From Schmidtea polychroa (taxonomy: Eukaryota), in the NCBI GenBank assembly GCA_044892525.1, contig CM097885.1, forward strand, positions 14,944,001-15,008,000: a DNA stretch of 64,000 nucleotides, in the 5' to 3' direction. Shown one piece after another: positions 1 through 37,970 of this stretch. The notes under the pieces are model-generated. The model had not been told where the DNA came from. It saw only the letters and a program-made list of their open reading frames with translations, and made no database searches. Numbering within the stretch: the stretch's first letter is position 1; each line of letters begins with the position of its first letter. The translations under genes and the position numbers were made by a program.

Positions 1-155
1 CTATCTACTCCTAGTGTATCCGACAAAATATTTTGTCCCCCTATGGGTAATGCTCACAAGGGTACTGGTCACGCTCAACAAATCAACAAATCAACAAAAC
101 ATACATTTATTTAAACAATAAAATAATGTAAAATTAACAAAGGTAAACTAAATAT
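1..155. repeat. Inner portion of left terminal inverted repeat
   Basis: Reverse complement of 17360-17514 with 2 mismatches seen; includes the 16-bp palindrome GACAAAATATTTTGTC. Confidence 0.95.
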
Positions 156-783
156 ATATAGTATGATATTCATTAATCAGTGTTGAACAGGCTTGACACT
201 TGCGAACATTCTTCTCATGACACTTAGAACAAACAATTACGTGACCACACGGTAAATACAAAACCGAAACTCGATTTTCTTTACAAATTGAACAAGTTAA
301 ATATCTTTTCTTAACATCTTTCAATTTTTTCGTTAGCTTATTTTCAATCAAATCGGCTTTCGCTATCCATTCATAAATCAATCTACTATATCCAGGTTTC
401 AACCTTAAAAACATACAACTCCAAAAGTATTCATTCAGTGAATCGTTGTTTACTGCTATTTTTTCTAAGTACATTAAATAACAAGATAACTTTAAAATGG
501 ATTTCTCATAATTAAATAAATCAAACAAATATTCAATAGAGGAATGTTTGAAAATTTTTAAAATATTTATGAGTTGCTTATCACTGTAAGTATCATGATT
601 ATTTATAAAATCTTCAAGTGTATTGTTAAAAAATGTCAATGAAATTTCAGAATAGGCTGGACTTAATTTTTCCTTATTTCTAGTAGGACTTCCTTGCTAT
701 AAATGACATATAAAAAAAAATTGCCAAAATAATAAAGTTACCAAATGTGTTACACATTCATCGGTTTTATTTGTATAAATCAT
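148..783 (-). CDS. C-terminal RING-HC (IAP/MDM2-type) E3 ligase-like protein, about 196 aa, 2 exons (742-783, 148-696)
   Basis: CSICKENRVSVLYLPCGHVIVCSKC...CQAC at the extreme C-terminus. A 45-bp GT-AG intron (697-741) joins ATG 783 in frame. No BIR domain recognisable. Confidence 0.8.
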
Positions 784-923
784 TATTAAAAACTAAATTA
801 CTTTTGTTTTTTTTTACATTTATAAAAATTGTGATAACCAATCAAAATAGAGCTTTCAAAATGTAACCATCAAATGTATAACAATAATAAGCATGACTAG
901 TACCCTTTGCAACCTGTTTTAAG

Positions 924-1136
<213 letters not shown>

Positions 1137-1141
1137 TTCAT

Positions 1142-1303
1142 TGATATAGCTGCATGCTCACTGCAGACTATATATAAAAATACTGATATAGCTGCATGCT
1201 CACTGCAGACTATATATAAAAATACTGATATAGCTGCATGCTCACTGCAGACTATATATAAAAAAACTGTTATAGCTGCATGCTCACTGCAGACTATATA
1301 AAA
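1142..1303. repeat. 4 x 42-bp tandem repeat with dyad core TAGCTGCATGCTCACTGCAGACTA
   Basis: Units start at 1142, 1184, 1226 and 1268. Confidence 0.95.
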
Positions 1304-1528
1304 ATCACCATTAAATATAAAAAATTATAATAAAACACCAAATACTTAAAAAATTAAAAAAAAATCTGATTAAAAATTTTATTGAATATGTATATATAAA
1401 TACAAGTTTTATACAATATACAGGTTTTTGTACAAGTTTTTAAATAAAAGTTTCTATACAATTTTTTTTATAAATCATGAAATCACTATACAAGTTTTTA
1501 TAAATCAAAAATATAAAGTTTTTTCTAT

Positions 1529-4500
1529 TTAAATTTGATCTTCGTCCCATTCGCTGTCGTCAAAACTGGGACTTGGAGCTGCACTGAATTCCTCATCATA
1601 TTCGCTTAATTCGTCAACTCCTAAATAGTGCCCAAATGCGTAACTTAAGTTCTTCCCTAGCCACGCGCGCTTATCATCATTATTACTTAGGGCAATTTTC
1701 GAATTTTTAAAAGTAAAAAGTTGGTGATTTCTAGTACCTATTCTAGTCTGCGGTACAGAAATCACCTGATTTGAATGAAAGCAATTTAGATATGATTCGT
1801 GATTTATTGATGTCCCTGGTAATTTAACCCCTTTCGCTTTTACTGTTTCCTTACTACCTAAAAGACTATAACATTTAGGGCGTAAGAAAACCCATTCGGA
1901 ATAACCTAATCCCTTGCTCTCATCTTTAAACTTCCCGATGACAGAGTCAAGGTTCCTATTATATAAGGGGTGTGTTGGATCGTAATTTGACGTATCCAAT
2001 AAATTATCAGAGATCATCTGAGGTAATAGAGTTGTTAATTTTAAATTTTTAATTTCCAAAAAGAAACTGTCGGTATCACCGGCAATAATATTAATTATAC
2101 ATTTATATTGGCGTCTGTACTTCTCCAAATCAATATATTGGAGCTGGTACATCCGCAGTTTAGACAGATCTAGTACTGTTTGACCAATGTAGCTAGGTCT
2201 GTCTAAACAAATCACATCTTTTTCTAAATGTGCCGCAATCAGATCGTTATCGATTCTTATGGACTTTCTGAAAGTCGGCTTTGAGGAGTATACTATCATC
2301 TTTTCGGATGAATTACACAACCTCAAATTCATTCTTTTTTTCAAATTTTCAACCGATTTACCGTAAAGAGAGTTATTATACAATTTAAACAAGTCCCTAT
2401 ATATCTCGCTAGTAGACTGAGATCGTAAAGTGGTGTTGGTGTCTATGTAGGATTTAAAGATAGGTCCTTGTTTAAACTTTATACACCTATGAATATTTAC
2501 AACAACCGCACCTAATTCTATATACAATTTGAGAAGCCTCCAATGAAGAACATAGTTCCTCTTTGGCCAATGCGTAAGCATAAGCTTCTCAACTTTTGAA
2601 TTAGGTGGGCACAACTTTTCCGGCGCAAGCGGAAAATCATTCAAAAAGTCATGCACACATTCCGGAATATCGATATCGACCTCCATAGTATACCCATATG
2701 GAAGGTTATCAATATCCGTGTTCATACATTCAAGTAAAACATCATTCAAGTTATTATTCACCCAAGAAAAATCACCATACGGAAGATTTTGGCTAAGAGC
2801 CCAACCATACAGATTATTTATATCAATGTACAATAATTCTGTATCATCTGAAGTAGCCGTGTAATGTTTGTTAACAAATGTTAACCCACCCCGGATACCT
2901 CCCTCATAGAAATTATACATTTCCATGTCCTGCAGAAGTTCTATTGGTTCCGTTAATGTCATAAGCGCTGAGGCCCATGACATACCGGGAATCCCGTAGA
3001 AATTAAGAGGATCCAGACCTTTGTAAGCAATTGCCTTACCGCGGAATTGCTGAAAATAATCTGCGAGGAGGTATACGTCCAATTTTAGGTAGATTAACAT
3101 ATAATCTAACAAATTATTACAGTTATGCTGACTCCAAATTAGTTGAGCCTCAGCGTACTGATCTTCCGTAACATCAGACCAAATAGGAGGTAATTCTAAA
3201 GTCGATTCAAGAACATCTAAAGAAGTAGCGAAATTATATGGAAAGATACCTTTAGAGTGAATCATCGACCCTTGAAAGACAGACGAAGTTAACGGAAAAG
3301 TAGTTAAGGTTTTCACAGCTTTTGCTAAAGAACAATTAACAAATTGCATGCTGTCAATAAAACGAACAGGCAATTTGTTAATATATGCAATTAAAGATAT
3401 AAATTTTTCTGTAGAGGTAGGTATAATATTAAGTTCCCAAAGGGGAAAATCACTGAGACCATGTTTTAAAATATGGTGGAGGTCATAGCCTCGTAAATTA
3501 TGAAAGACAACAGGTAACAATTTATTAATCCTGCGAGAAACATTGCATTTCCTACATGCCGCTCCGACATATCTACCTGTAAAATGACAATGATCTCTCA
3601 CAGGATTAATAATAGATTTTTTACACAAATAACAAATAGTGGAAGATCGAAAGGCACGCTCCTGAGCAAAAGACAAAGTAGACATACCTTTACGACCTTT
3701 AAGATCATAATATGGCAGGACAATTGTGACAGCAATTTCCTCCACTTTCCTCAAAAAATCCAAAATACAATTAGGTCCAAAAAAATAATAATAAAATTTT
3801 GTGTTTGTATAATTATTAATTAATAAAAGACCTGCTGATATGGGTAAATGTATTTGATGATATGTTTCATGTTCTGGTAAAACCGATTCAAAATCGGCAT
3901 AAATTACGAAGGGAGGTGTAACTGTTTTTGCGTAATCTGTGAATAATAAATCCTTATTTTTAGGAAGTGTATACAAGGTTGTGCCAGTCTGATTTTTACA
4001 GCATAGAGCAACATGCTGATCGAAAGCATTCTTATATCTAAAGCCATTTAAACAATGTGGGCACCAGTTACACCTTATTTGAACGTTAACATTTTCATTT
4101 AAATGGCAATTCATTAATTTGTCCAAGTCTGTCACGGCCGTATAATGATATTTATCTTTATTACTCAAAAGTAATAAATAAATTGGCCTACCATCTATAA
4201 CCTTGGAGCGATGTATGATATTAAGATGAGGGTGGTGAGCTACATAATCCTGAGAAATATCACTATCAGTACTGGCTGGATTATACGAAAGAACGTTTAT
4301 GCTTAAATTTAAATCACGATTTTTCCTTTCAAATTTAGGAATGTTACATAGCCTCATCGGGCAATCGGTGTCTTCGTCATAATTTAATAGAGGTAAAAAT
4401 TCTATATATTTGGCGGCTCTTTGGTGATTACGACCTATTTCTTCTCTTTTTAAAAGTGCAAGAATGCTATATAAGAAACACTTATGGTCGTTGTTTTTAA

Positions 4501-5645
4501 CGTTAATTATTGCATGTTTTAATTTTAAAGCCGATGGGGTTTTTATATAGCTATGTCCGGATAATCTACTAACGGGTGCGTATTTCGTTAAAATAAAATC
4601 TATCTCTAAAATATTCACTACTCGCCACCCGCTTCCTAAATAGGTGAATTGCTCAATCTTTTCATTTAATTTGCTCACCCCCTCGTTTATAAAATTTGCT
4701 GAAAAAACTTGCGCATTGTTTGAAAAATAATTATCCCGGATCTCCCCATCTTTTTCAAATTTAATTAAAATTGTAAATTGGATTTTTACATTGCCCATCT
4801 TTTCTATTTCCTCTATTAATCTTTCTTCAATTTTTGATGTTAGGGCTATTTTAACCAGGTTTTCATTTCTTATATTAAATTTTAAAGTTTTACGTGATCC
4901 ATTCAAATCGGATTCAACAACTGGTTCAAACAAAGAGCCGCCTATTTGAAATATGTTGAAAGACGTTGAAGCTACACATTCATCATTGATGACTATCACT
5001 TCTTGTTGTGTAATGGGTGCTTGTTGTGTAATGGGTGCTTGTTGTGTAATGGGTGCGTTGCTGATGACTATCACTTCAGGTCGCGATAATTTATTAGGAA
5101 TGTAACTTTTAATTAAACCAGCAGGTCTTTTAATAGAATCTTTTTTAATATTTATAATATCTTTTTTAATAATATTTATAGTATCTTTTTTAATAATAAT
5201 AGCATCTTTTTTAATAGAATCTGTTTTTTCTTTTATAATATTTTTTTTAATATTTTTTAAATCTTTTTTAATATCTTTTTTTAAATCTTTTTTAATAATA
5301 TTTTTTGGTAAATTTTTTGATAAATTTTTTTGTAATTTTTTATTTATTTTTTTAAATAAAACATTTTTTGATATCGAAAATTGCCCTAAGTGACTATGAT
5401 GTTTATTAAAAAATTCCCTATATTTTATTTTTTCGCTCGTTACGCATTTGGGGCATATAAAAAAGTTGAGCGAATTAAACGTCTTTTTGTAGTACTTTTT
5501 CATTGTGCGATGACATTTATCGCTATGTCCATTTGCAGCTTGACAATAATTTGGGTATAGTCTACCTGTTAAATAATAAAATTAAAGTTTTTTCTTTTTT
5601 TTCTAATTGTTATTAATTGTTACATCTATAAGGATTTATCATCAT
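1529..5645 (-). CDS. polB: Protein-primed family B DNA polymerase (pPolB); probable 22-nt first exon 5624-5645
   Basis: Exo motifs YADFES and FHNLRGYD; KGIFPY, YIDINNLYG, KLYNNSLYGK, GDTDS, LRPKCY. OTU-like DHKCFLYS...HY segment, C2H2 finger and EndoVII-like CYLC..RDHCH..C..CN. The frame is open to an acceptor at 5566, and intron 5566-5623 gives the N-terminus MMINPYRCRLYPNYC. Confidence 0.96.
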
Positions 5646-5788
5646 TTGTTATTTAATTCAAATGAACTATATAACAAATGATGATAAATCTTTATAGAAA
5701 ATAGGTTAATAGAGAATATTAGAGAGATTTTAGTATATGGGTCAGATTATTATATGTTAAATATTAGACGAGTAAGATTATTATTATT

Positions 5789-5869
5789 AAAGAGAAGTAG
5801 CTGCATGCTCACTGCAGACTACTATATAGCTACATGCTTACTGTAGACTACATTAGAAGGGTCAGATTA

Positions 5870-5941
<72 letters not shown>

Positions 5942-6020
5942 AGAGAAGTAGCTGCATGCTCACTGCAGACTACTATGTAGCTACATGCTTACTGTAGACT
6001 ACATTAGAAGGGTCAGATTA

Positions 6021-6078
<58 letters not shown>

Positions 6079-6164
6079 TTATAAAAGAGAAGTAGCTGCA
6101 TGTTCACTGCAGACTACTATATAGCTACATGCTTACTGTAGACTATAGTAGAAGGGTCAGATTA

Positions 6165-6236
<72 letters not shown>

Positions 6237-6315
6237 AGAGAAGTAGCTGCATGCTCACTGCAGACTACTATGTAGCTACATGCTTACTGTAGACTACATT
6301 AGAAGGGTCAGATTA

Positions 6316-6378
<63 letters not shown>

Positions 6379-6379
6379 G

Positions 6380-6456
<77 letters not shown>
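5789..6456. repeat. 4 x ~80-bp conserved units separated by variable (ATT)n spacers
   Basis: Units AAAGAGAAGTAGCTGCATGC...GGGTCAGATTAT start near 5789, 5940, 6085 and 6235. Confidence 0.93.
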
Positions 6457-6457
<1 letters not shown>

Positions 6458-6559
6458 TTAACTATTGTAGATGCACATTGCAAACTACAAGGATTTTATA
6501 ACTATAATTTTGTAATAACTTTTTAAATATTTTCATAATAATTTCAAAAACATAGTATT

Positions 6560-7030
6560 TACTTCATAAATCATTTTCTTCATAATTTTCGTCATAAGTT
6601 TCATCATAATTTTAGTCATAAAGTATTTTCATCATAAATTTTCGTCATTATTTCATCATAATTTTGGTCATAAATCATAAAGCATTTTCATTATAATTTT
6701 GGTCATAAATCATAAAGCATTTTCATTATAATTTTGGTCATAAAGCATTTTCATCATAATTTTGGTCATAAATCATAAAGCATTTTCATCATAATTTTGG
6801 TCATAAATCATAATAAATCATTTTCATCATAATAATTCATTTTCATCATAATTTTGGTCATAAAGCATTTTCATCATAAATTTTGGTCATAAATCATTTT
6901 CATCATAATTTTGGTCATAAAGCATTTTCATCATAAATTTTCTTCATAATCATTTTCTTCATAAATCATTTTTTCATCATAATTTTTTGGCATATTTTCA
7001 TCATAAAATCATTTTCTTCAACAGTTTCAT
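6560..7030. repeat. Degenerate minisatellite (CATTTTCATCATAATTTTGGTCATAAAG-like units)
   Basis: Irregular tandem units; no sustained reading frame. Confidence 0.85.
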
Positions 7031-7122
7031 TATAATTTTTATCCAAATATTTAAAATATTTTTTATCAAAATGTTTTTTTTATGAAAATATTTAAAAAGT
7101 TGTTACGAAATTTTAATAAATT

Positions 7123-8000
7123 TTAATATAAAAAATATAAAAATAAATGAATCTTACATTTCGATTCCATATCGGAATCAGAGTCCTCCTCATTAGAAGC
7201 GATGTCATTCATTTCGTCCATATTAGAATCAGAGTCCTCCTCATTAGAAGCGATGTCATTCATTTCGTCCATATTAGAACTATTATCGGAATCATCATCT
7301 TCAGCAATTTCATAATCTTCGGCATCAATGTCAACATTGAAAACATTTGAATTTGAATTTGAACATTTGAAAACATTTGAAACATTTTCTAAAATGAAAA
7401 ATTAATTTAATAAAGTGAAAAATAATAAAATTTACTTTTTTCTTCGAAAACCTTGTTTTGCCCAACATTCTTAACTGGGGCATCAATAAATATCAAATCC
7501 TCATCGGCATTAATTTCTTCGTCTTCGCTAATAGTAATAATACTAGGTTCTAAATGCAAAAATTAATTTAATAAAATTTAAAATTATAAATTTACCGATG
7601 ATATTTTCCGTATTTAAAATCGATTCGGCATTAATTTCTTCATCGTCGTCGCTAATAGTAATAATACTAGGTTCTAAATGCAAAAATTAATTTAATAAAA
7701 ATTAAAATTATAAATTTACCGATGATATTTTCCGTATTTAAAATCGATTCGGCATTAATTTCTTCATCGCCGTCGCTAATAGTAATAATACTAGGTTCTA
7801 AATGCAAAAATTAATTTAATAAAAATTAAAATTATAAATTTACCAAAGATATTTTCTACATTTAAAAGCGAATCGTTTTCGGTAACCTCATACCAGTCGA
7901 ATGGTTCTAAATAAAATAGAATAAAATATAATAAAATAGAAAAAAATAAATTACCATTCGTCAAAAGACCTCTCAATACTCGATTCTTGTTGCTTTCCAT
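7123..8000 (-). CDS. Six-exon acidic protein (about 214 aa) with tandem SUMO-interacting-motif-like repeats
   Basis: Exons 7955-8000, 7844-7906, 7720-7797, 7596-7673, 7436-7549, 7123-7388. Five 46-48 bp GT-AG introns, all phase 1, give an uninterrupted frame with 3x EPSIITIS(D/E)xxEE. The 3' end is uncertain (possible further donor at 7157). Confidence 0.8.
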
Positions 8001-8517
8001 TTTGGTTTTTTTTTCGAATTGATTGTGAAATAGATTTTCAAAATTTTAAAATAATTGTGACAAATTTTAGATTTGTCAATGTTTATAAAGAGAATGAATA
8101 TTTTCCTGTCCCAGCCAATGAGAATATAGACACACACACATATACATTGAATATTTTACTCTCTCAACCAATCACACGCATGCATGTATGTAATGTAAAT
8201 CAGTCAGAATTACATGTGACTGCCTTTGTTAGTCATGCCTTTGTTAACTTGCACTGTGCATGCCTCAGGCAAAGGTAGTCTTTATGTTACAAATAATAAT
8301 ATTTATTAGAATAATAATAAAATTAATTAAAAATAATAATATTTTTCACAATAATAATAATATTAATAATAATATTAATAATAATAATATTAATAATAAT
8401 AATAATAATACTATTAATAATAATATTAATAATAATAATATTAATAATATTAATAATAACACAACAACAAAGGAAAGGATACATTTATTAAACATCAAAT
8501 TTATTAAACATTTTTCT

Positions 8518-8904
8518 TTAAACATCAAATTTTTTGTACAATAACCAAGCTAAACAATGTTGACCGCATGTTTGGGTCAAAGGATTTTGAAACATAGTTT
8601 TATTATACACAATAGGTTTTCCCATTGTTTGTAGTTTTGATATCAACAAAGCTGGGTAATAGAAACCCATAGGATCGAACACGAATATATTACCAGGTTT
8701 CACATATATAGCTATCCAATGTTCTCCACCAAGATGAGACGATTGAGTATTGACGATTATTGCTTGATTATTGCTCAAATATGGAATTTTATCAAGAGGA
8801 AAAACTCCAACAAATTCATTTCCCAATATCTGTTTTCCGATTTTATTGACCTGAACAGAACTATTTAAATAAATCCAGAGTATAAAAAAAACAACTTACT
8901 CCAT
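8518..8904 (-). CDS. Adenain-like (C5) virion maturation cysteine protease, 2 exons
   Basis: IIVNT...GEHW...FDPMG...Q...CGQHC catalytic motifs. A 39-bp intron (8861-8899, donor GTAAGT) supplies the ATG: MDSVQVNKIGKQILGNEFVGVFP. Confidence 0.92.
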
Positions 8905-8931
8905 GATAACTTTTTGTGTTTCTGTATACAT

Positions 8932-10152
8932 TTATACCAACACGGTTCTATTTGCAGTAATTTGAACTTCATTTTCAAATACTCCATATATTATAACATG
9001 TACTGGTTCTGTAATGGCTCTTGCAAACTTTATATCCAGTCGTAAATTCCCGTTTTGTGGTAATTGACTTTGATTTAAATCAAAATCAGGGGCTAAAACA
9101 AATGTAAAAAATGGGTATTTGCTTTTAAAATCTTCTAGTGTTATTCCGCAATTCAAATTTTTATCTAAATAACCCAGATTTCTAACAATACTCTGCATAT
9201 ATGTCGCGCAGTAATTGTCATTCTCGAAATCTTGAATATATGTTTCTCTATAATCAGTATTTTTCGACAAAGTCAATGATGTAACACCAAAGTTTTTGAA
9301 AATTGAGCTGGACGCAGTGTATGATCCATTATATTGTGCTTCACTTTGAAATGTTATCAGAATAAAATTAGGCATTCTTCTGTCACCAAATATTTGTTCT
9401 TTATAGAATGATGAAGCACCTTTAGCAATAGCAAATTGTACAATTTCCTTTGTTTTTAAGGGATAAATTGCATGTTTTGAATTAAGACCCAATTGATGAC
9501 CAGCTAATACAGAGGGGTCTACTCGAACTCTTCTCACCAATAATTTTGCATCAACTAATTGACATATTGGTGTAGTAGTTGCACTAGTAAGAGATAATGC
9601 AGAATCAGACCTTTTCAGTCTAATATGTACATTAACCCCCGGTAGTAAATATTTCGGTTGATCCATAAAATCAAGTTGTAACGATGAGCACATGGTGAAA
9701 ACCTTTGAGCCTTTTACCCACTTTTTTCTTTCATCATCACTGCCATAACCCATAGGAGTAAGACATGTATTTTTAGTATCGGAATTGTAATTTAAAATAG
9801 TTTCTATTAATGCCTTGTGAATGAATGTATTATTTCCGCCCTCAATCTTGATATTATTAAATCCCAACACTGCATCTTTAAAAAGAGTATGAAACAGGAA
9901 ATTGTTCGATATTACATCTGCATTGGCATCCAAAACTTTTCTATCTTTATCTACAACCTTAATCTGAACAGTCAATAAAGTATCATTCAAATCTAAATAT
10001 TCGGTTTGCTAACCATTAATATAAAACTCGATATCATTTCTACTATCGGTAATTGAATTCATAGGAAAAACTTCCTCAAATGCCCCAAATTCTATTACAG
10101 CCTGGGGCGACGGTCTATCAAATATACATAATTCGGATTTACCACAAATCAT
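8932..10152 (-). pseudogene. Polinton major capsid protein (double jelly-roll) with one in-frame stop at 10009-10011
   Basis: ATG 10152 (ATGA overlap with upstream stop) reads MICGKSELCIFDRPSPQAVIE...IEFYING*QTEYLDLNDT. Family motifs LDFMDQPKYLLPGV and GNLRLDIKF follow. Confidence 0.87.
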
Positions 10153-10517
10153 TTTGCAAATATAGTTCCATGTCCTTTCATTCGTTTGTTTATACGTGAT
10201 ATTCCATGTCTTTTACGTTTTGGAGCATGAGCTGGAGCTGGAGCTGGAGCTGGTTTTTGAAACATACCTGCAACCCCGGGTAAAACTTTCCCTAATTCTG
10301 CTAAAGCATTTGTTTTTAGAGATGGTAATATTTTCTGTTCATTCATAATAACATCTTTTGCAGTTTTCATACCAAAACTACCAATACGTTTAAGAATAGG
10401 CAATGCAAATCTACCTATTGTTCTCAACCATCCTGATCCGTACTGTTTACCAATAAAATATGGTAAATCACCACCAGATTGGCCACTATACATACTAATA
10501 ATATCAGAATTAGCCAT
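10149..10517 (-). CDS. Small basic Polinton virion protein (QxGxG plus amphipathic helix; core or membrane-lytic type)
   Basis: QSGG..PYF.GKQYGSGWLRTIGRFALPILK with a basic C-terminus; sits between mCP and MCP with coupled stop/start. Confidence 0.75.
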   Translation of the reverse strand: MANSDIISMYSGQSGGDLPYFIGKQYGSGWLRTIGRFALPILKRIGSFGMKTAKDVIMNEQKILPSLKTNALAELGKVLPGVAGMFQKPAPAPAPAHAPKRKRHGISRINKRMKGHGTIFAK

Positions 10518-11568
10518 TTATTTTACGAAAATGTAATGTCAAATGAGTTTTTGAGCCTTTTGGAAATTCGATTAATTGACCAGAATCATCTCTTATATTT
10601 ATTTCTATATTGTTTATACAAGATGTTGAAACAGGTAAATACATGGGATTTTCTACATTGATTTGTACAACTTCATCTTGATCATGTTTTTCAATCCATA
10701 TAGATTTCATTAAAGGAACACTAGAATCGCCAACAATAACTGGTTCCACGATATTACTGTAAATGAACATTTGCTGATGATGTTTAAGGATTTTCGGTTT
10801 GTTTGTTCCTTCACAAATTTGTTCATTTTGTGTACATACTGGTTTAGTCAATCCTAATGTTTTTGTCAAATTTGAGTCAAATTTAACTTGACTAAGATTA
10901 GAATTTATACTAAATCTAAATACTTTATCTTTTTGAAGCTCAAAAATATCGCTACAATTGTCACCTAAATAAGTTTGTAATTGTTCGAGGTCTGTAATAT
11001 ATAAATTATCTTTAAAAGTATATGCATGCTCTGTTATTTCAATGTATGACAGCTTAAATTTGAATTCCACTAAATTATTAGTTTTCGGAAGTGTAGAGAT
11101 ATTTATTTTGACTGTATCATTAAATACATTACGTAAATCAGTAAATCCAAGACGTTTAGCATCAGCCACTGTAGAAAATATAATTTCGAATGGCTTATTC
11201 AAGCAATTCATGTATAAATATTGACCATCATCATAAATTATAGGTTTCCTTGATTTCGATGAACTCGTCAAGTTATAATTATCTTTATCAATAAGAACAT
11301 TAATATATTCCGTTACTGCTACTTTCTTATTATATTCAATAACGGATTTGCTATAGATTGGGAATAAATTGTATACAAATGTAAAATCCAACAGAGCAAC
11401 TTCCCAGTCATTATCCAAATAGATAGGGTTTTGGAGTTCGATGATGAATTTGCTTGCTTGATTTTCTGGATGAATTAATGGACAACTATTGCTCGGCAAA
11501 ATAGTATAAAAATTCACTTTACTATGTCTTTTGCTGATATCCATGACGGGTTTTGATAACCATGCCAT
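10510..11568 (-). CDS. Minor capsid (penton-like) protein
   Basis: FYTILPSNS...F...L.NPIYL..DWEVAL at the N-terminus and FIYSNIVEPVIVGDS..PL...YLPV...I.I.IRD..G..I.F...T.LTLHFR at the C-terminus. Exact start codon uncertain. Confidence 0.87.
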   Translation of the reverse strand: MAWLSKPVMDISKRHSKVNFYTILPSNSCPLIHPENQASKFIIELQNPIYLDNDWEVALLDFTFVYNLFPIYSKSVIEYNKKVAVTEYINVLIDKDNYNLTSSSKSRKPIIYDDGQYLYMNCLNKPFEIIFSTVADAKRLGFTDLRNVFNDTVKINISTLPKTNNLVEFKFKLSYIEITEHAYTFKDNLYITDLEQLQTYLGDNCSDIFELQKDKVFRFSINSNLSQVKFDSNLTKTLGLTKPVCTQNEQICEGTNKPKILKHHQQMFIYSNIVEPVIVGDSSVPLMKSIWIEKHDQDEVVQINVENPMYLPVSTSCINNIEINIRDDSGQLIEFPKGSKTHLTLHFRKING

Positions 11569-12146
11569 TTGACATAGTATTGTTTATCCTTACCGACCTT
11601 TTTAGTTTTCAATATTTTTTGAATTCTAAATACTTTTGGGGGAGGAATGACTTGTAATTCCTGCTCATAAAATTTCCCCTGTAAAATATTATTATCATTG
11701 TCTTTGATGACATACATTACAGGATTCTGTTTAGTATTTATTTTTGAAATTACAAAGACTTCATCACTCCAATTTGTATCAAAATTTTTAATAAATGGTG
11801 ATGCACTAATTTTACTAATTCTAACATGGTCACCGACTTTATATTTAGGTTTTGCAATTTTTACAGATTTCTTAGAAGTCAATGATGTTTTTGATGTAAT
11901 ATCAACCGGTCTCAATCCATTCAGTCCTCGATGTGATGAATGATTATAACTTGTTATTATTTTCGGTAAAGCATTTACCCATTTTTTATTACCTTGATGC
12001 ACGAACAATTTCTTTAATCGATCTCTCAATGTTCGATTAAATCTTTCAACATGGGCAGCTTTGTATTGAGAATGTACCGAGTAGTGATTTATTTTCAGTT
12101 TATCGAGGATTTGCTTAACTTTACTATTGTAGAATTCTTTACCTAA

Positions 12147-12238
<92 letters not shown>

Positions 12239-12626
12239 CTAAATCTGTTTGCAAGTTATTAGGATGTCCGTCTTTAAATAAAATATTAATTGCCTTGGAC
12301 ATTTCTTCTGCAGATTTTGCCTTGACCGGTATTGCTCGTGCAAACCTGCTGTATACATTAATACATGTTAAAATATATTTATTCCCATTGTTAATTTTCG
12401 AATATGGTATCATCTCCATCAAATCCATTTGCCATAAATCGTCAATACCAAATGTTTTATACGCTCTTGTTGGAAATCTTTTCCGCATTGGTTTGTTCAA
12501 ACTGTACGCAAGCTGATCTGATAACCACTTCTGGGTTTCTTTTTTCGAATTCGGAACTCTTTTGTTTAATTTTGCCACTCCACCGAAACCGGCTTCGTCT
12601 TCTGGGTTCGTCCAAATCTTCTCCAT
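11514..12626 (-). CDS. Retroviral-type (rve) integrase with C-terminal chromodomain; 96-bp microsatellite intron 12143-12238
   Basis: DDE motifs WQMDL, QTDLG/KEFYN (restored by splicing) and VERFNRTL; chromo-like YYVKWHGY..SW. Confidence 0.94.
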
Positions 12627-12684
12627 TACAACAAGAAGATTTAAAATTAAATTTAATGTCGGGCAATGAAGGATTAGCACCCAT
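12457..12684 (-). CDS. Putative small N-myristoylated protein overlapping the integrase 5' end
   Basis: 75-aa ORF starting just after the upstream stop at 12688; MGANPS, CC and a basic cluster. Confidence 0.35.
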   Translation of the reverse strand: MGANPSLPDIKFNFKSSCCNGEDLDEPRRRSRFRWSGKIKQKSSEFEKRNPEVVIRSACVQFEQTNAEKISNKSV

Positions 12685-12687
12685 TGT

Positions 12688-13221
12688 TTATGATTGATTT
12701 CCTACAACTCCACCTAATAATGATAATGCCAGAGGTATTAATGCGCCAATAAATCCACCTTGTTGTTTATATATAATTTTTCTCATTTGCTTACGATTTT
12801 TATTATTTACTAAAGATAACAATGGTTTCCTATGTTTGCTCAATAAATGCTTTTTTGATTTACTGATTTTAATTTTGCCTTTGACTACTTTAAGTATAAT
12901 ATTGAGTAAATCATCGACAACAAAATTTGGGAATGATTGCAATATATTCATTCTTTTCATACTCGGGGCCTTTAACAATGCATTAAAAAATGGAAAACTG
13001 CGATGATTTTTAATTACTTTTTTACCGGCTTTACGGGTTTTACGGGTTTCACGTTTAGGTTTAGGATTTTTCGAAATAAGATTCATTGCAGAGAAATTTC
13101 CAGTTACAAGTTTTTTAGATGGTGTATAACTAGTTGTTGGTGGAACTTTTGGAACTTTAATACTCTTTTTAATACTTTTTCTTAATTTCCTAATATTTTT
13201 CACCCTTGCTTTTAGAAACAT
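12688..13221 (-). CDS. Very basic Polinton core-like protein with C-terminal QxGGF plus hydrophobic tail
   Basis: Lys/Arg rich; ends KQQGGFIGALIPLALSLLGGV. Confidence 0.78.
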   Translation of the reverse strand: MFLKARVKNIRKLRKSIKKSIKVPKVPPTTSYTPSKKLVTGNFSAMNLISKNPKPKRETRKTRKAGKKVIKNHRSFPFFNALLKAPSMKRMNILQSFPNFVVDDLLNIILKVVKGKIKISKSKKHLLSKHRKPLLSLVNNKNRKQMRKIIYKQQGGFIGALIPLALSLLGGVVGNQS

Positions 13222-13239
13222 TATTATTCATAGAGGTTT

Positions 13240-13866
13240 TCAACTTTGTTTATAAACCATGGCACCTTTTGGGTTGAAAATATCTGTTTTTACTCGTAAA
13301 TCATCGGGACATTGTTGTGTGAAATCAAGAAATATATATCCATGAGGTATTTTTCTAGCATCTTGAAATGCACTGATAAGAAAATTACGATTGTTAGGGT
13401 ATGCTTGACGTGCAAGAAAATCAATCACTGTTGCATCTCTAGGATTCTTGAAAATGACTAAATACTGTACATTTAAATTACGTGTTCGATGTGCCCCACC
13501 TTGATGAAATAGATTTTGAGTTATGAAAATAACTGTTACACCGACATGTCTGCTGATCTTTGTAAATAAATTATTAAAATCTTTTTCTTTATTAGCTTCT
13601 TGATACAAATCATCGATAATAATGACATCACCTTTCTTTAATCGGCTGGACCAGTTTTTATCGAATACCTTTACTATTTTCATGTTTTTTAATTTACAGA
13701 AACTTGATTGAGTTAATCCATGTTCTTCATCAGCACCCCTATGCCAATAAATCCTGTTGAATTTTGATTTGAATAAATTTGATTTTAGTAATTTACAAAC
13801 AAATAATGTTTTTCCACTACCACTCGGACCAACGATTTGGTATACTGCATCATTTCTTAATTCCAT
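13240..13866 (-). CDS. A32/FtsK-HerA type genome packaging ATPase
   Basis: Walker A GPSGSGKT, Walker B IIIDDL, SRH...FITQNLF, FKNPRD. Confidence 0.95.
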   Translation of the reverse strand: MELRNDAVYQIVGPSGSGKTLFVCKLLKSNLFKSKFNRIYWHRGADEEHGLTQSSFCKLKNMKIVKVFDKNWSSRLKKGDVIIIDDLYQEANKEKDFNNLFTKISRHVGVTVIFITQNLFHQGGAHRTRNLNVQYLVIFKNPRDATVIDFLARQAYPNNRNFLISAFQDARKIPHGYIFLDFTQQCPDDLRVKTDIFNPKGAMVYKQS

Positions 13867-13965
13867 TTCAAAGATTTTATAAATGGATATTTGTTTATAT
13901 TCGATGATTTAATGAACTCATGCTCAATTTGTATATAAAGACTAATTTTCATAAATGATTTAATA

Positions 13966-14403
13966 ATGTTAGCAAATATAAATTATCGAGGAAATTTTGA
14001 TGTATCGAATATGAGGTTCCCACCAGGGAAACCTCAGCAAATTATCGATAGAAGCGGGAAATATCCGATAATATTTTTCAAGACTGGTAAATGCCGAATC
14101 ATGGGATGTAAGAAACCTTTGGATATTAATAAATTACAATATCGAATAAATAATATTAAAATCCAATCAATTACCGTTACTATGGATATGGGACATAGTA
14201 TCAATCTATATAACATGTCGAAAAAATGTGATTGTATGTTTGAACCGGAATTGTTTCCGGCACTAAGACTAATAAAATATAACCCTATATGTGTCAACGT
14301 GTTTGCTAGTGGAAAGGTTGTCATGTTGGGGTTGAGAAATTTGGAGTATAGAGAATTTGTTGACAATGTTCGAAATGAGATAATTTCATTGGTCGATTTT
14401 TAA
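13966..14403 (+). CDS. TATA-binding protein (TBP)-like protein
   Basis: Two TBP repeats: IFFKTGKCRIMG and INL...FEPELFPAL...VNVFASGKVVMLG. Confidence 0.88.
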   Translation: MLANINYRGNFDVSNMRFPPGKPQQIIDRSGKYPIIFFKTGKCRIMGCKKPLDINKLQYRINNIKIQSITVTMDMGHSINLYNMSKKCDCMFEPELFPALRLIKYNPICVNVFASGKVVMLGLRNLEYREFVDNVRNEIISLVDF

Positions 14404-14473
14404 TTGGTTAATTTCTAATTGGTTATTGATTGATTTAAACAAACGGTTTTTTGTTTAGAATTCATTTTTCACT

Positions 14474-14891
14474 ATGTACAAAATACCAAGCTCTGCAACC
14501 CTCATGAAGGATATTGACGATTCCGGTAAATTTAAAATTTTTATTTTCACATTATTTACTATTTATTATTTTAGAAAAATATATCAAAGTTATGATCAAT
14601 AGAATAAAATATTATTATCCGCAAATCAATGAAATTATCAAGGATAGAGAAGCAGAAATAATTCCGGACCTCATTTTCTACAAAACACAAATTAGAATAA
14701 TGGAGGTATTTCACCAGTTTCTGTGGGATTTAAAGATAAACAGAAGCATCAAACAAATGGAGCCAGAGTACCAGTGCATCATCGGATGCTCATGCTGTGC
14801 CGATCGATATCGGCGATATGTCGAATGGGAGTTAGTGAAAACTCTGCGAAGGTTTCACTACTCCCGGATTGTAGATCTTGGATATGAATAA
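14474..14891 (+). CDS. Hypothetical protein, 2 exons (14474-14525, 14575-14891)
   Basis: A 49-bp GT-AG intron (14526-14574) joins MYKIPSSATLMKDIDDS to EKYIKV...; Cys cluster CIIGCSCC; AATAAA overlaps the stop. Confidence 0.65.
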
Positions 14892-15295
14892 ATGTATTTT
14901 TGTATCTGTTGTGTTTTTATATTTGAAATAGTAATAAATAATAGTAATAAATAATAATATTAATAATAATAGAAATAATAATAGTAATAATAGAAATATG
15001 AATAGTAATAATAATAGAAATAATAGTAAAAAAACATTAATAATAATAATGAAACACATTATTAATAAATCTGTAAATAGAACATATAACAAAACATGTA
15101 ATAATTAAAACATTAATAATAAAACACATAAATAATAAATCTGTAAATAGAACATATAACAAAACATGTGACAATGCAACATCAATGCATTTTGAATGCA
15201 ATTTTAAACAAAGACATGCTGTAATCTGATTGGTTGATAGACATGAGTCAAAGGTATAAAAACCCTGTAACATTTCAATTTATTCATTATTCACG

Positions 15296-15706
15296 ATGAC
15301 CAAGAAAATTTCAAGCACCGAAAAACCAAAAGAAATGGTACAACCAGTTCAAATGTTCCACAACTACAAAATGTATTTTTTGAAAGAAGAAATCAATATG
15401 AAATTGGTTGCACCAGTCAAGCTAATTCCAACTAAATTCGAATTCTTATCCGGCACGCTTTCAATGATTGATGTCAAAACTATTGATGATGTTTTTAAAC
15501 GGATAGATTCGAATCTATCGTGTAATCAACATGCATGGTTCAACAATAGATATGCAAGATTTTATGATGCTTTTGATGAAATCAGTTTCAAAGAAAATGA
15601 AAATTGGTATATAACAATAGCAATCCAGGGATATAAAGTTGATAATAATGATGTATATTCTCCTATTTGGAAAATTATGTCTGCTAGACTTTCACAAATA
15701 TTTTAA
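15296..15706 (+). CDS. Hypothetical protein, possibly an OB-fold ssDNA-binding protein
   Basis: Own CCAAT/TATA promoter and AATAAA. C-terminal ITIAIQGY..YSPIWKI..ARL resembles viral SSB strands (impression only). Confidence 0.55.
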   Translation: MTKKISSTEKPKEMVQPVQMFHNYKMYFLKEEINMKLVAPVKLIPTKFEFLSGTLSMIDVKTIDDVFKRIDSNLSCNQHAWFNNRYARFYDAFDEISFKENENWYITIAIQGYKVDNNDVYSPIWKIMSARLSQIF

Positions 15707-15832
15707 TGTTATATTTAATAAATGTATTAGTCAGATTTGTTTTTCTCTTTATTAATTGCAACATAAATGCAAATGACCTGCAAATTTAACAAAGAAAATC
15801 TATAAACAAAATTATAATATAGTTTTAAAGTG

Positions 15833-16218
15833 ATGAAAATGACTGCAGAAAAAGGTTAACATGATTAATTAATTACCGAATTATTTATTATTTAGAATTT
15901 TTAATCAACTTTTTGTTGGAAAAGTTAGCAGAAATATCTGGTGTGAAAATGGAGGATATATTATCTATTACAAATGCCTTAAATATCGGCTGGTTAGTTG
16001 AGAGTCAAGATACAGGATTTGATGATGAGGAAGAAACTCAAGAAATTGATGAGGAAGAAACACAAGAGGAAATGTATGAACCTATAGAGGAACCTATAGA
16101 GGAACCTATAGAGGAACCTAAAGATGAATCTAAAGATAATATTACGAATGATTGTATTGATCATGTCGTTGAAAATATAATGAAATGTGGAGATGACGAC
16201 TGCGAATGTGTTAATTAA
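15833..16218 (+). CDS. Small acidic protein with EEPI repeats, 2 exons (intron 15855-15895)
   Basis: A 41-bp intron joins MKMTAEK to EFLINFLLEKLAE in frame. Confidence 0.6.
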
Positions 16219-16286
16219 TAAATCTTAGTGTTTGTAAATTTATTTAAAATTTTATTTAAAAATCAAACAAAATAACTATATAAATT

Positions 16287-16801
16287 TTATTTAAAAAAAC
16301 GACATAAAACATATAAAATAGCAACACCTGTTGCAAGTTTTAAATAGTTTTTAAATTGGATTTTTTGCTGATCTAATTCTTTTGCATTTCTGGCGAGTCG
16401 ATTCAGCACGCCCCATCCGCCATTGGCTTCAATCCATGGCTGAAACTTTGACTTGATTATCTAGAAAATATATATTAATAAAATATAGATTATAAAAGTA
16501 TTACTTCTTGAGACCACTGATAATAGTGCTCGGAATCCAATAGGCTTTTTTCAATTATTATCTTCATATAAGCGAACCCTACTAATATTCGGGTCCACTT
16601 CATCTCCTCGTCGCATAAGCAATTAAATATTCTATTAAAATAGAATTTCTTTGTTTCGAGGGAATCGGAATTGAGGACGTCCTCATAATCAATGTGATTA
16701 CCTTCTATAATCTTTTCGGTCCGATCGACCAGGAAAATTAGGCTTTCCATAATATTCCTGTTGATGAGTTCTCTTAACATATTTTCCATTAAATTAGACA
16801 T
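16287..16801 (-). CDS. Bcl-2 family protein (156 aa), 2 exons (16505-16801, 16287-16460)
   Basis: BH1-like DEEMKWTRILVGFAY. After a 44-bp intron: BH2 PWIEANGGW and tail anchor YLKLATGVAILYVLCRFFK*. Confidence 0.87.
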
Positions 16802-17359
16802 TTTTACAATATTTTAAAATATGATGTTTTATTTATACTAATACCGGATGATTTTGATTGGTTGATAGACTATAAATGTAAAAGAAAGGTTTTGATTTGA
16901 TACACCATGAAAACTATATTCATATTGCTAATTATTATAACGAGTGTGTGCTCACACAATACAACAATAACAGTGGAGTCTTTTAATAAATCAATATGTG
17001 TTTGTCCGAATACAGCCAAGTTGATGGATATTTTATATATTCTCGACAAACCAAAATGGTCAAAGCATCCAGGAAAAAGAATATCTCAAAGATTGGAGAA
17101 TTTAGAAAACAGTTATGAACTATCATTTGAATATATACAAAATATAAAATTTGAATTGATTGATCATATTAAGGTTTTCAATAACTCTATTGTTGAAAAT
17201 AAAATGAATATGAAAATAATTGATAAGAAGCATGATTATTTGTTAAAAAAGATTGAATTATTATTAAGAGAAATTCAAACAATCAAAGGATCAATAGAAT
17301 CTCTGAAAATCAATTCAACGTTACCAATTTCTAACAATATTGCTGCGAATAGTACATCA

Positions 17360-18683
<1,324 letters not shown>

Positions 18684-22347: not shown

Positions 22348-24807
22348 TATAGTTCCTCTACCGGTAAAAACCTTTACCGTTTACCGGTAAATTGCGCATT
22401 TTTACATTACCGTTTACCGGTAAAAATATTTACTAAATTACCGGTAATACGGTTATTGTGCAAAATAAAAAAATATTATATTTATCCTATAACAATAAAT
22501 ATAAAAACCAGTAAAACTGAATTACTTAAAGAACTGTGCATGTGATTTTGTGATTTTTTATTTAAAATAAATAATATTTCGTAATACATAGAAACAAATT
22601 TTTAGAAACAAAAAATCTCGTAAGTAATATAAGATTTATCTATAACGTTATTGATTTATTATTAAAATAAAATTATATTGAAAAATTAATATTTTTTAAT
22701 AAATAGAATATTGTTTAAATAGAATATGGGTTCTTCAAATGTTTGGGAGCATTTTGAAAAGCGAAAAGACAGTAATAAAGAAGCTATATGCAGATTATGT
22801 AAAAAATCTATTAAATGTGATGGTGGTTCAACAAGTGGAATGATTTCGCACCTTAAACTTGTACATAAAATTTTGATCAAAAAAGCAGCTGATAATGATG
22901 CAGGTCCTAGTACTTCTGCCTCTACATTTAAAAAGGATAAAATATTAATATCCAGTTATTTACAACGTGAAACTTTAGAAGAGATTGTGTCTAGACTAAT
23001 TGCTTTAGATGATTTCTCTTATTATGGCGTCACAAATTCGTCTTTCATTCGGCAAAGTATAAATAAACTAGGACACAAGCTTCCAAAAAATTCAACGGGC
23101 ACGATGGAATTGGTAAAAGTTATTACGAAAAAATAAAAATACAACTTGTAGAACAATTACAGTCCAAAATTTCTATTGGGAAACGATTTTCGCTGTCTGT
23201 AGACGAATGGACAAGCATCAAAAATAGAAGATATTGCAATATTATTTTGTATGATGACAAAGAAAATGACAATCTTGGTTTAGCAAGAATAACTGGAAAA
23301 TGTGATGCAAAAAATATTCAGGCAATAATAAGAAACCGATTAAATGAGTTCAACGTATATTTTGATCATCATATTTTATGTTCAATCAACGATGGTGCAG
23401 CAGTAATGCAAAAATATAATAGAGAAAGTCCAGTTGAACCGGTATTATGCTTAAACCATGCACTACATTTATCAGTAACCAAGTTTTTCTACCAAAAATA
23501 TGTTGATGAAACTGACCAGAGTTCAATTGCAAATGAGAAAGACATTATTTTGGAAGAGGAATATGACAGTGACGCTGACATTGATGATGGTGACTCTGCT
23601 GAACCAGATAACCATATGATAATTGAAAAGATAAACGAGGCAATTGAAAATGATGAATACAGTCATTCAATATTTTTCATTCAATTGCAAGCCTTACGCA
23701 GCGTCATTAAATATTTTCGATTATCGTCATTGAAAAATGATTTTTTGCAAGAGAAGATAAAAATTCGACTTGGCAAAGAACTGGAATTAAAAATAGATAT
23801 AAAGACACGTTGGAATTCCATCGATCCCATGATAGAACGATATTTACAAGTAAAAGAAGAAGTAAAAGAAGCCTTAGAATATTTTAATTCTCTTCATTTG
23901 TTTTCCAGAAAAGACGAAAAATATTTGATAAACATTCAAAAAATTTTAGAGCCAGTTCGGATTGCCGCAGAAGCCTTAGCAAGAAATGATGCTATTTACC
24001 ACGGAAAGTGTAATTGAATTGTTATGTTCAACATTGGAAAAAAATACCGATTCACCAATAACTTCTAACTTCTTAGTTTGTTTGAAAAGAGAAATTGATA
24101 AAAGACGTAATATTAAATTATTGTCTCTTGTACAGTACATACTTCATCCAAAAAATTTAATGAAACGAAATGTTCACTTTGATTACTGTTCAAAGTTATC
24201 GACAGTGGCATTTGGGAAAAAATAATTGAAAGATTATTCAAATCAGATGAGTCAGCAGAATCAGATTCAGAAGATAATGTCGAGACCGACCTTTTAAATA
24301 CTGACTTGAAATCTCAATTTCAAAAAGCTATTTCTACAGCTATGGTTTCCATTTCCAGTAAACCAGTAGGATTATTATCATCAGTCCAGAAAGAGTTTTT
24401 ATTTTTTGAAGTATCCGGGTAAAAAAAGTCATAATCTCACACTTTTGTTCGAAGCTCTGCAAACCGCAAAACCAACATCTACAGACAATGAAAGAACATT
24501 CTCCATAGCGAGCCGAGTTTGCACTAAAATAAGAACTAGGTTATCGGATGAAAATTTGCACATTATCGTTTTCCTTAAATATTTCTTTTTGAAACAAAAT
24601 GTTAACAAAAATAATGAATAATTTAAATTTTTGTATTTAGTTCTTTTCTTGAATGATTTCTTTTATATAATATGTATGAAATAAACATATTGTAATGTTT
24701 TTTTTCAATTAAACCATGATTTTGTTTTAATTTCTGGTAAAATGTTTATTACCGAAATTTACCGGTTTTACCGGTAAAATAAAACATACGGTAATTGAGG
24801 AACAGTA
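22348..24807 (+). mobile_element. hAT transposon, full length, frameshifted BED-finger transposase (22726-24621), 8-bp TSD GTCATAAC
   Basis: VWEHF..C..C BED finger, DEWTS, DGA, CLNHALHL, TRWNS, ERTFS. TIRs TATAGTTCCTC/GAGGAACAGTA, subterminal TTACCG repeats, TSD at 22340-47 and 24808-15. Confidence 0.93.
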
Positions 24808-29763: not shown

Positions 29764-30960
<1,197 letters not shown>

Positions 30961-33117: not shown

Positions 33118-33688
33118 TGCGTGTTTTCCATAAATTGGACACAATCCTAAATTCCCTAACTGCTTTTTTATCTTCCCTTTATAATCCTTAAAACCTACTG
33201 ATGTCAGTTTTAATCGTTTTAATTTTTTGTAATTTATTTAAAATTTTTTCAATATTTTCAATATTCAAATAAAATCATGCCTTCCCACTCCAATTTGCAA
33301 ATACATTTCTTAGTTATGATTTAAACTATTTGCAAAATCAACTTATTGAGGCCATGTAATTATCTCAAATAATTATCTACTTATACACTTATTTATATGA
33401 AATTTTAGATATAATGTGAATATATTTATTTAATTAATTACTTATTGAAGGTGATTAACACATTTTATATGAGATCAACTAATTAATACCAAATCTTATC
33501 ATATTTGTATGAGCATTAAAGTTTACTGGTGCTGTAATAATAATATTAAAAACAGTACAGTTGGCATATGTTAATTGATCAATATTTACAGACACACACA
33601 CACCAACTCGTTTTTGATTGGCGGACTAAATTTCAATTGATTAAATTTCAATCGAACAGTTTTAATCTTCATTAGTATATTTAATACA

Positions 33689-34708
33689 ATGAGGATACTA
33701 GGGATCGAATTTGCATCATTTCTCGTTCCACTTGATAGAAGACTACAAACATTTGCTGTTGCTCAATGGTTTTTTAATTGTTTAATAACACCTTTACTTT
33801 GTGTTTTATTGATAATCATCAGTTTGTTCACTCCTGTAATGCCAATAACCATTTTATACTTGTTATGGATTTATTTCATTGACTATAAAACTCCAAAATC
33901 TGGTGGACGAAGATTCAATTATATTAGAAGCTTGAAATTTTGGAATTATTACAGAGATTACTTTCCTATTAGTTTAATTAAAACTGCTGATTTGGATCCG
34001 AAAAATAACTATTTATTTGGATATCATCCTCATGGAATTCTGGTTTGCAGCGCATTTTGTAATTTTTGCACAGAAGCAACAGGTTTCTCTAAATTGTTTC
34101 CGGGAATTCGGCCATCAATGTTAACATTAGTAACGAATTTTTATTTTCCTCTATTGAGGGGTTTACTATTAGCACTCGGTGCTTGTGATGTCAGCCGAGA
34201 GAGTGTTGAATATTTATTGACTAAAAACGGAACAGGAAATGCTGTAGTCATTGTTGTTGGAGGAGCCGAAGAGGCTTTAGATTCCAGACCAGAAATATTC
34301 AAATTGACATTGAAAAATAGAAAAGGATTTGTGAAAATGGCTTTAAAAACCGGAACTCATTTAGTTCCATGTTTTGGATTTCATGAAAACGAAATTTTTA
34401 ACCAATTACCAAATCCAGAAGGATCTTTTTTGAGATCATTACAAGAAAAGGTAAAAAAAATCTTTGGCATATCACCACCTCTATTTTATGGTAGAGGTAT
34501 GTTTAATTACACATTCGGCTTGATGCCTTTTAGAAAACCATTAGCAACTGTTATTGGGAAACCTATACCATTGGAGAAGAATGAAAACCCGTCACAAGAA
34601 TTATTAAATGAAATACATCAACGTTATCTGGATGAATTAACTAATCTTTTCGAGGAAAATAAATTAAAATATGGAATAGGTGAAGATAAACATTTGACAT
34701 TTGTTTAG
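33689..34708 (+). CDS. DGAT2/MOGAT family acyltransferase (intronless CDS, 339 aa)
   Basis: RRLQT, RDYFP, YHPHG, VVGGAEEAL, RKGFVKMAL, GRG...GLMPFR. Confidence 0.95.
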   Translation: MRILGIEFASFLVPLDRRLQTFAVAQWFFNCLITPLLCVLLIIISLFTPVMPITILYLLWIYFIDYKTPKSGGRRFNYIRSLKFWNYYRDYFPISLIKTADLDPKNNYLFGYHPHGILVCSAFCNFCTEATGFSKLFPGIRPSMLTLVTNFYFPLLRGLLLALGACDVSRESVEYLLTKNGTGNAVVIVVGGAEEALDSRPEIFKLTLKNRKGFVKMALKTGTHLVPCFGFHENEIFNQLPNPEGSFLRSLQEKVKKIFGISPPLFYGRGMFNYTFGLMPFRKPLATVIGKPIPLEKNENPSQELLNEIHQRYLDELTNLFEENKLKYGIGEDKHLTFV

Positions 34709-37453: not shown

Positions 37454-37970
37454 GTTCAAATTTAAATTTTGATTATTATAACTTCTGTAATGTTGGTATA
37501 TTTAAACAAACATAATTTTGGGTTTGAATTTTATTCTATTAAAACAAATTTCTAAAAACGATATTTATTATTAATTATCAAAATTTACTAATCTTGCCTT
37601 TTTGATTTCTCATATTTTTATTCTTATATATTTTATTTTTGTTTTTGAGAATTTATATATATATATATATATATAATTTGATTGTTAATACTATAAATAT
37701 TAAAAATTCATATTCATACACTTGGCGTATTCATTTTCGCTGGCAGTATACTGCTTAAAGAATTCAATGTAAAGACTCTAGATTTTGTTCAATTAACATA
37801 AACAAGCAAATAAAGATAATTACTGTTTCATAAAAATGAATGCATAAAGTTGATCAATTCTTTTTATTACATTATCGATTATTCTTATACAAAATCTTTG
37901 AAAATATGAGTATTGTTTGCGCAATTTTTAAAAAAGTAGGGAAAAGTAACCTTGAGAAATGTTATATTAA

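Follow-up and report, generated by a model that had tools for sequence, protein, structure and literature searches.

The accessible text of PMC8097293 describes the core genes of intact vertebrate Mavericks as intronless, and the accessible part of 10.1101/2022.07.12.499685 reports introns of a nematode Maverick in cargo genes only. Integrase-type transposases of Ginger1 elements are interrupted by 1 to 4 introns (PMC2836005, available part). For the third intron (IVS3) of the P element, the available portion of PMC7776569 reports retention that depends on tissue and on piRNAs, a silencer located in an exon, and a repressor product.

Recently gained introns have been described in Daphnia, where neointrons average 77.7 bp and 78% AT, 33 carry junction repeats of 4-12 bp, and stop-free introns of 3n length are rare, stops being present in 25 of 27 neointrons of such length (PMC4202315, accessible part). 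Introns are known to be gained at AGGT sites and through the repair of breaks, and the mechanisms have been reviewed; the accessible text of that review gives a junction repeat for 25% of gained and 26% of old Drosophila introns (PMC3443670). Because these frequencies are alike and the repeat is partly splice consensus, finding such a repeat says little about how an intron arose. Introners can recruit both splice sites from a target-site duplication, and their definition filters out low-complexity families (PMC9860276, PMC11957031, available parts); they also occur inside Maverick-like elements of dinoflagellates (PMC11957031, available part). A literature search, whose coverage lacks most subscription papers and supplements, returned no title concerned with introns, microsatellite ones included, of Maverick integrases, although such a case may be published; the accessible parts of PMC10748475, PMC8502044 and PMC11296320 hold nothing relevant on Maverick integrase introns.

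The element and its integrase gene

The DNA analyzed here, referred to as the window, is a 64-kb stretch from Schmidtea polychroa, and a Maverick/Polinton element occupies approximately positions 1-17,530 of it (Table 1). As in animal Mavericks/Polintons (adintoviruses), terminal inverted repeats enclose an rve integrase with a chromodomain, an A32-like ATPase (Pox_A32), an adenovirus-type protease (Peptidase_C5), a double jelly-roll capsid protein and a large polymerase-like open reading frame (ORF). A RING protein is also encoded within the element. The host genome is AT-rich, with a GC content of 20-36% per 2 kb across the window.

Table 1. Features of the Maverick/Polinton element in the window
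Feature	Position	Strand	Details
Left terminal inverted repeat	1..155	.	Cut by the window start
1,324-aa ORF, putative protein-primed DNA polymerase B	1529..5503	-	Open throughout
Accessory gene	7389..8000	-	Five 46-48-nt candidate introns, phase 1: 7954-7907, 7843-7798, 7719-7674, 7595-7550, 7435-7389
Adenovirus-type protease gene	8518..8904	-	Peptidase_C5, E 3e-6
Candidate protease intron	8861..8899	-	39 nt, phase 2, GTAAGT..AG, directly 3' of the start codon; common to related elements
Major capsid protein, double jelly-roll-like	8932..10130	-	5' end approximate; premature in-frame stop at 10009-10011
352-aa ORF, putative minor capsid protein	10510..11568	-	Assignment suggested by position; relatives in 38 loci
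Integrase exon 2	11514..12142	-	Catalytic Glu E194 (read-through numbering); weak C-terminal chromodomain match
3' copy of 8-nt direct repeat	12140..12147	-	Provides AG/GT acceptor
Candidate integrase intron	12143..12238	-	96 nt, phase 1, GT..AG, (ATT)30 interior; 32 additional codons if retained
5' copy of 8-nt direct repeat	12236..12243	-	Provides AG/GT donor
Integrase exon 1	12239..12626	-	129 codons + 1 nt; catalytic Asp68 and Asp128 (12245-12243)
A32-like packaging ATPase	13240..13866	-	Pox_A32, E 1.2e-6
TBP-like gene	13966..14403	+	Pfam TBP, E 1.3e-15; matched also in 5 related loci
Candidate intron of another accessory gene	14526..14574	+	49 nt, phase 1
Right terminal inverted repeat	17360..17514	.	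98.7% identical to the left copy; at least 155 nt long

The Pfam rve match of the integrase (E 1.2e-5) lies under the curated cut-off. D68, D128 and E194 are invariant in an alignment of 79 integrase sequences, a structure model of the relative P0002 matches foamy-virus integrase (E 1.1e-14), and, via P0002, Asp128 can be aligned to the TD motif in retroviral integrases of known structure. Both exons are open in the window copy and retain the invariant alignment columns. Look-alikes of the capsid protein were found at 0.97, with PF21738 on 24-65% of their members. The premature capsid stop is missing from approximately 99-100% of the aligned contig depth in 4 of 4 sequencing runs; since it is private or rare among aligned copies, the window copy is decaying.

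We take the 1,324-aa ORF to be a DNA polymerase B from B-family-like motifs, judged by eye; Pfam and PDB sequence searches with this ORF gave no polymerase match and only a weak endonuclease-VII match. The gene is flanked (5777-6457 and 926-1304) by ATT arrays that alternate with or abut tandem units of 151 nt and 42 nt, with one short motif in common, possibly a regulatory or replication element. The terminal repeat has a second, degenerate copy (79-81%) at 29925-30000, within 29765-30309 and beside a long TAA array; the short tandem repeats next to it belong to the same family as those at 17435-18555, after the right end of the element. Outside the element, the window contains a BED-finger transposase remnant (22726-24017), a diacylglycerol acyltransferase (33641-34708), a cyclin whose two ORFs are separated by an intron-like gap (36302-37501) and a DDE_Tnp_1_7 transposase fragment (40551-41135).

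The repeat segment and its read-through product

The initial annotation had described a 96-bp GT..AG segment of (ATT)n beside the second catalytic Asp, whose retention would keep the frame and insert about 30 Ile. Both descriptions were borne out. The segment begins in the second codon past Asp128; on the minus strand, it starts with GT and ends with TTTTAG, with AG preceding and GT following it. It is composed of 63 T, 31 A and 2 G (66% T) and lacks C, and a perfect triplet array of 91 nt (30.3 copies, 12147-12237) lies within it. A 370-aa ORF (12626-11514) runs through the segment without a stop, adding 30 Ile and Leu-Gly. The candidate splice boundaries are exact and consistent with the frame.

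The segment is bounded by an 8-nt direct repeat, which the initial annotation does not mention, and GT..AG is obtained in only 1 of the 9 equivalent registers of this repeat. With the AGGT of the Leu-Gly codons duplicated, both splice dinucleotides derive from it. If 8 nt of the integrase exons were duplicated at random, the duplicate would include AGGT by chance at 5 of 381 and 10 of 622 positions (1.3-1.6%). An ATT repeat by itself is unsurprising because the window is rich in long ATT arrays, with 18 array pieces of at least 8 units. Only the integrase one is flanked by GT and AG at its two ends and by a direct repeat of the 8-nt type (1 of 18).

The donor of the segment, GTATTA, is unlike the other donors in the element (GTAAAT, GTAATT and GTAAGT). 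The repeat supplies a branch-like A every 3 nt, and a full branch-point consensus is absent from the segment. Its RNA is predicted to be U-rich and unstructured (folding z +3.38). A group I/II intron or an intein was ruled out, as the segment is 96 nt of pure repeat without structure, and a frameshift device was ruled out by its 3n length. A bacterial promoter scan, irrelevant here, was at chance level.

In the read-through protein, hydropathy over 19 residues reaches 4.5, compared to a maximum of 0.94 in the relative P0002. An AlphaFold model of this form has a confident core (mean pLDDT 85.5), with the insert looped out at pLDDT 49-54. A block of 30 Ile beside a metal-binding Asp would most likely inactivate the integrase.

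Occurrence among copies and relatives, and other candidate introns

The element or part of it was found in 20 of 23 listed sequencing runs, from 7 studies; none of the 23 is recorded as RNA. Contigs of four runs were aligned to 8500-12161, a stretch that ends inside the tract, so that skipping from exon to exon is not visible in these alignments. The runs yielded 41,117, 7,991, 449 and 53 aligned contigs, most of them less than 99% alike; the family is thus abundant and variable. No loose ends at 12147 were seen among 23 of 1,795 rows, a result that carries no weight.

Run X13 contained two contigs of 181 nt with identical ends (11976-12156), differing from the window at 1 and 11 positions. 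Both extend 9 letters beyond the direct repeat, into the tract. A tract-free copy would mismatch at 8 of these 9 letters, and therefore the first contig holds the start of the tract. The equal ends point to an assembly bubble in which the last 30 letters are common to both; the depth arithmetic of the bin neighboring this bubble was reproduced (27.1). The tract is so carried by two variants approximately 6% apart, the second by way of the presumed bubble. At the acceptor, neither of these contigs is spliced. This would argue against efficient splicing only in an RNA run, and RNA is a guess for X13, which may be DNA. One contig of run X1 continues past 12161 with an interrupted tract.

Sequence searches found only two near-identical proteins, P0125 and P0122. 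Over exon 1, each agrees with the window copy in 129 of 130 residues, and each departs from the integrase sequence exactly at the segment site (a sample of two). P0125 continues into an interrupted, Ile-rich tail of 17 residues and then a stop; this tail has no match in the window apart from ATT arrays. Read from the protein, the P0125 segment would be 56 nt, which is not 3n, if its stop codon is the acceptor; as only the protein is being read, the tail may also belong to a chimeric or deleted contig. In P0122, an ENA protein of 144 aa, exon 1 is followed immediately by the final 14 residues (window 12239 to about 11559). There is no AG at this landing point in the window, and a DNA deletion from the tract edge, an odd splice or a gene model could each produce the join. 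No near-identical protein with an unbroken motif emerged from the sequence searches; a search for near-identical exon-2 fragments gave 11 matches, none near-identical, and an 18-nt junction pattern matched 6 loci in viral contigs, none of which encodes an integrase.

As far as these copies indicate, the segment is common to sister copies, being neither a one-off nor private to the window copy. The initial annotation had named copies lacking the segment as evidence that would count against it; wherever this could be checked (the X13 and X1 contigs and P0125), the segment, or in P0125 an apparent version of it, was present. Its description of the intron as microsatellite-expanded fits only in part, as the 8-nt repeat points to an insertion with target duplication, and the sister seems to have a shorter, interrupted version. 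The statement that slippage never shifts the frame holds for the window copy, where frame keeping needs no selection because the unit is a triplet and ATT contains no stop on this strand; given the stop 17 codons into the tail of P0125, frame keeping does not seem to extend to the whole family.

The motif at this site is unbroken in 118 of 120 related proteins (the best 120 of 1,058); of the two exceptions, one begins just past the motif and the other gave no motif match. It is also unbroken in 81 of 81 related loci, a count biased by one of the two metagenome search patterns being the unbroken motif itself; however, 22 of the 81 do not fit that pattern, having been found by other means. AGGT is present at the insertion site in 9 of the 81. 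By these comparisons, the integrase segment is a derived insertion.

Among 149 distant relatives of exon 1, the motif was present in 105, and 10 fail to continue as usual. Five of six discontinuous relatives that were checked are NCBI records of Trichonephila clavipes (P0177, P0183, P0194, P0216 and P0262), and the sixth is an ENA protein. The five records, which belong to a Maverick family unrelated to this one, leave the integrase at the same catalytic-Asp codons and jump to different downstream genes; they are probably computer gene predictions that score the site as a splice donor, and are not counted as RNA evidence.

Intron-like segments also occur elsewhere in the element. The 39-nt segment at the protease start codon recurs, with differing interiors, in 5 of the 10 related loci that have a protease match (L015, L016, L020, L026 and L027), two of which are near-identical and one of which, L015, has a less certain acceptor; the integrases of these loci have no intron. 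Length variants in the aligned runs fall within the same protease segment (8884). In the two accessory genes, six segments of 46-49 nt link stop-free exon chains, and all are phase 1, as is the integrase segment. The last 12 nt of the one on the plus strand are also the last 12 nt of the integrase segment. Three of the five candidate introns of the other, acidic accessory gene are copies of one 124-nt exon-plus-intron unit, which is present three times at 7504-7875 (minus strand) with phase 1 kept in each. A strict intron motif was observed 6 times, compared to a mean of 1.07 and a maximum of 4 in 200 shuffles, although the motif was chosen after the introns had been seen and tandem copies account for 3 of the 6. 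A loose intron scan was at chance (11 observed, 1-11 in 20 shuffles). A further candidate intron of 58 nt was noted just 5' of the polymerase ORF (5566-5623, minus strand). Overall, this Maverick lineage appears to use the host spliceosome, and the protease seems to be a second core gene with a need for splicing.

Origin, alternatives and comparison with known systems

With rather more confidence than doubt, we read the integrase segment as a recently gained, constitutively spliced intron that arose from AGGT-site duplication and ATT filler and is common to copies of the family. In this proposal, the Leu-Gly codons that follow the second catalytic Asp contained AGGT in the ancestral integrase. 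Repair of a staggered break at AGGT would have duplicated 8 nt and inserted ATT-rich filler, for which the ATT arrays that are plentiful in the element and the genome were probably the template. With AG/GT placed at both ends by the duplication, the host spliceosome could excise the segment exactly, and the family would keep spreading while the interior drifts in length and purity as an ordinary microsatellite. Removal by the host would mean that integrase production depends on host splicing, as that of the lineage's protease apparently already did, and splicing dependence of the integrase is likely. The retained form would be a failed product and not a second state. Splicing, the mode of repair and the absence of regulation are what we infer here; the geometry of the 8-nt repeat, the derived state, the diverged copies and the other intron-like segments are observed and, together with the intact exons, the acceptor end shared with an accessory-gene segment and the unstructured, U-rich RNA, argue for the intron reading. 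Against it stand the differing donor, the stop-free 3n length and, if they are RNA, the unspliced X13 contigs.

Those same unspliced contigs, the weak donor and the stop-free 3n length speak for the main rival, a disabling insertion, in which the tract, un- or barely spliced, killed an ancestral integrase, GT..AG is a by-product of the AGGT site, and the descendants are non-autonomous and use the integrase of tract-free copies. The private capsid stop of the window copy fits this account, as does P0122, which drops nearly all of exon 2 from exactly the tract edge, as if from a fragile site. However, it requires the 1.3-1.6% coincidence, the searches found no near-identical unbroken protein while both near-identical proteins leave at the site (a sample of two), and both exons are intact in the window copy; we regard it as unlikely. 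Rather unlikely, though still worth weighing, is a different origin, which would still allow splicing: the segment could be the bare (TAA)n tail of a heavily 5'-truncated non-LTR retroelement on the plus strand, with the 8-nt repeat as its target-site duplication, or an older short intron overrun by a microsatellite. A tail with an 8-nt duplication is the classic shape of non-LTR retroelement insertions, which counts in its favor, and the 56-nt segment that P0125 would have if its stop is the acceptor is near the 39-49 nt of the other introns. Against this origin, no source retroelement was identified in the window, and none of the 17 other ATT array pieces there has both splice-like ends and the duplication. 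Long perfect triplet arrays are error-prone in assemblies, and the exact count of 30 units may be off; an assembly artefact, or a one-off expansion private to the window copy, is nevertheless barely credible, as independent contigs show the 3' junction and an independent protein shows the 5' one.

The initial annotation had gone further and proposed a length-tunable switch between integration and episomal replication. A regulated switch resembling that of the P element, with retention set by tissue, small RNAs or tract length and gating integration while the other genes are still expressed, has a precedent in the third P-element intron, whose regulated retention gates a transposon (PMC7776569, available part). 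Being next to the catalytic Asp, the segment would very likely inactivate the enzyme if retained, in line with the modeled loop-out from a confident core, and a weak donor could be modulated. We nonetheless consider such a switch improbable. The length-tunable version in particular is unsupported: none of the observations ties the length of the tract to splicing or to an episomal state. Frame keeping, the basis of the proposal, follows from the triplet and seems absent from the sister P0125 with its stop; the 30-Ile block also speaks against a length-tunable form; all 81 related loci manage without the segment; and a copy whose capsid gene contains a stop is ill suited to running its own viral cycle. 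It is similarly a long shot that microsatellite filler and an 8-nt duplication made an intron in the active site that spread in a high-copy family and whose weak donor lets host splicing decide on integration, with replication and capsid genes still expressed.

Maverick core genes are generally treated as intronless, and surveys would thus score this integrase as broken or as bearing poly-Ile. If the segment is spliced, the family would hold many copies of one young intron with ends from an 8-nt duplication and a pure microsatellite interior, a natural series for the minimal sequence of an intron, for microsatellite filler as a founder of introns and for the tolerance of stop-free 3n length. 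Some Maverick lineages would then rely on the host spliceosome for core functions, which would open a route for host control. If it is unspliced, the segment merely marks a non-autonomous subfamily.

Of the described systems, introners differ in forming a dispersed family, whereas here 1 of 18 ATT array pieces, counted in the window only, has splice-like ends. The segment resembles the third intron of the P element, as described in the available part of its source, in that retention would block the transposition enzyme; tissue- and piRNA-dependent retention, the silencer and the repressor are features described for IVS3 only. Ginger1 elements also have interrupted integrase-type genes, but the element class is another one, and a microsatellite intron is not mentioned in the accessible part of PMC2836005. 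Like Daphnia neointrons, the segment is short, very AT-rich and bounded by GT..AG, has a junction repeat in the 4-12-bp range and could be excised exactly. Unlike them, it has a pure microsatellite interior, is stop-free at 3n (2 of 27 in Daphnia), lies in the active-site codons of a mobile element, and is spliced only by prediction. Compared to the vertebrate and nematode Mavericks described previously, the element in the window has intron-like segments in two core genes, integrase and protease.
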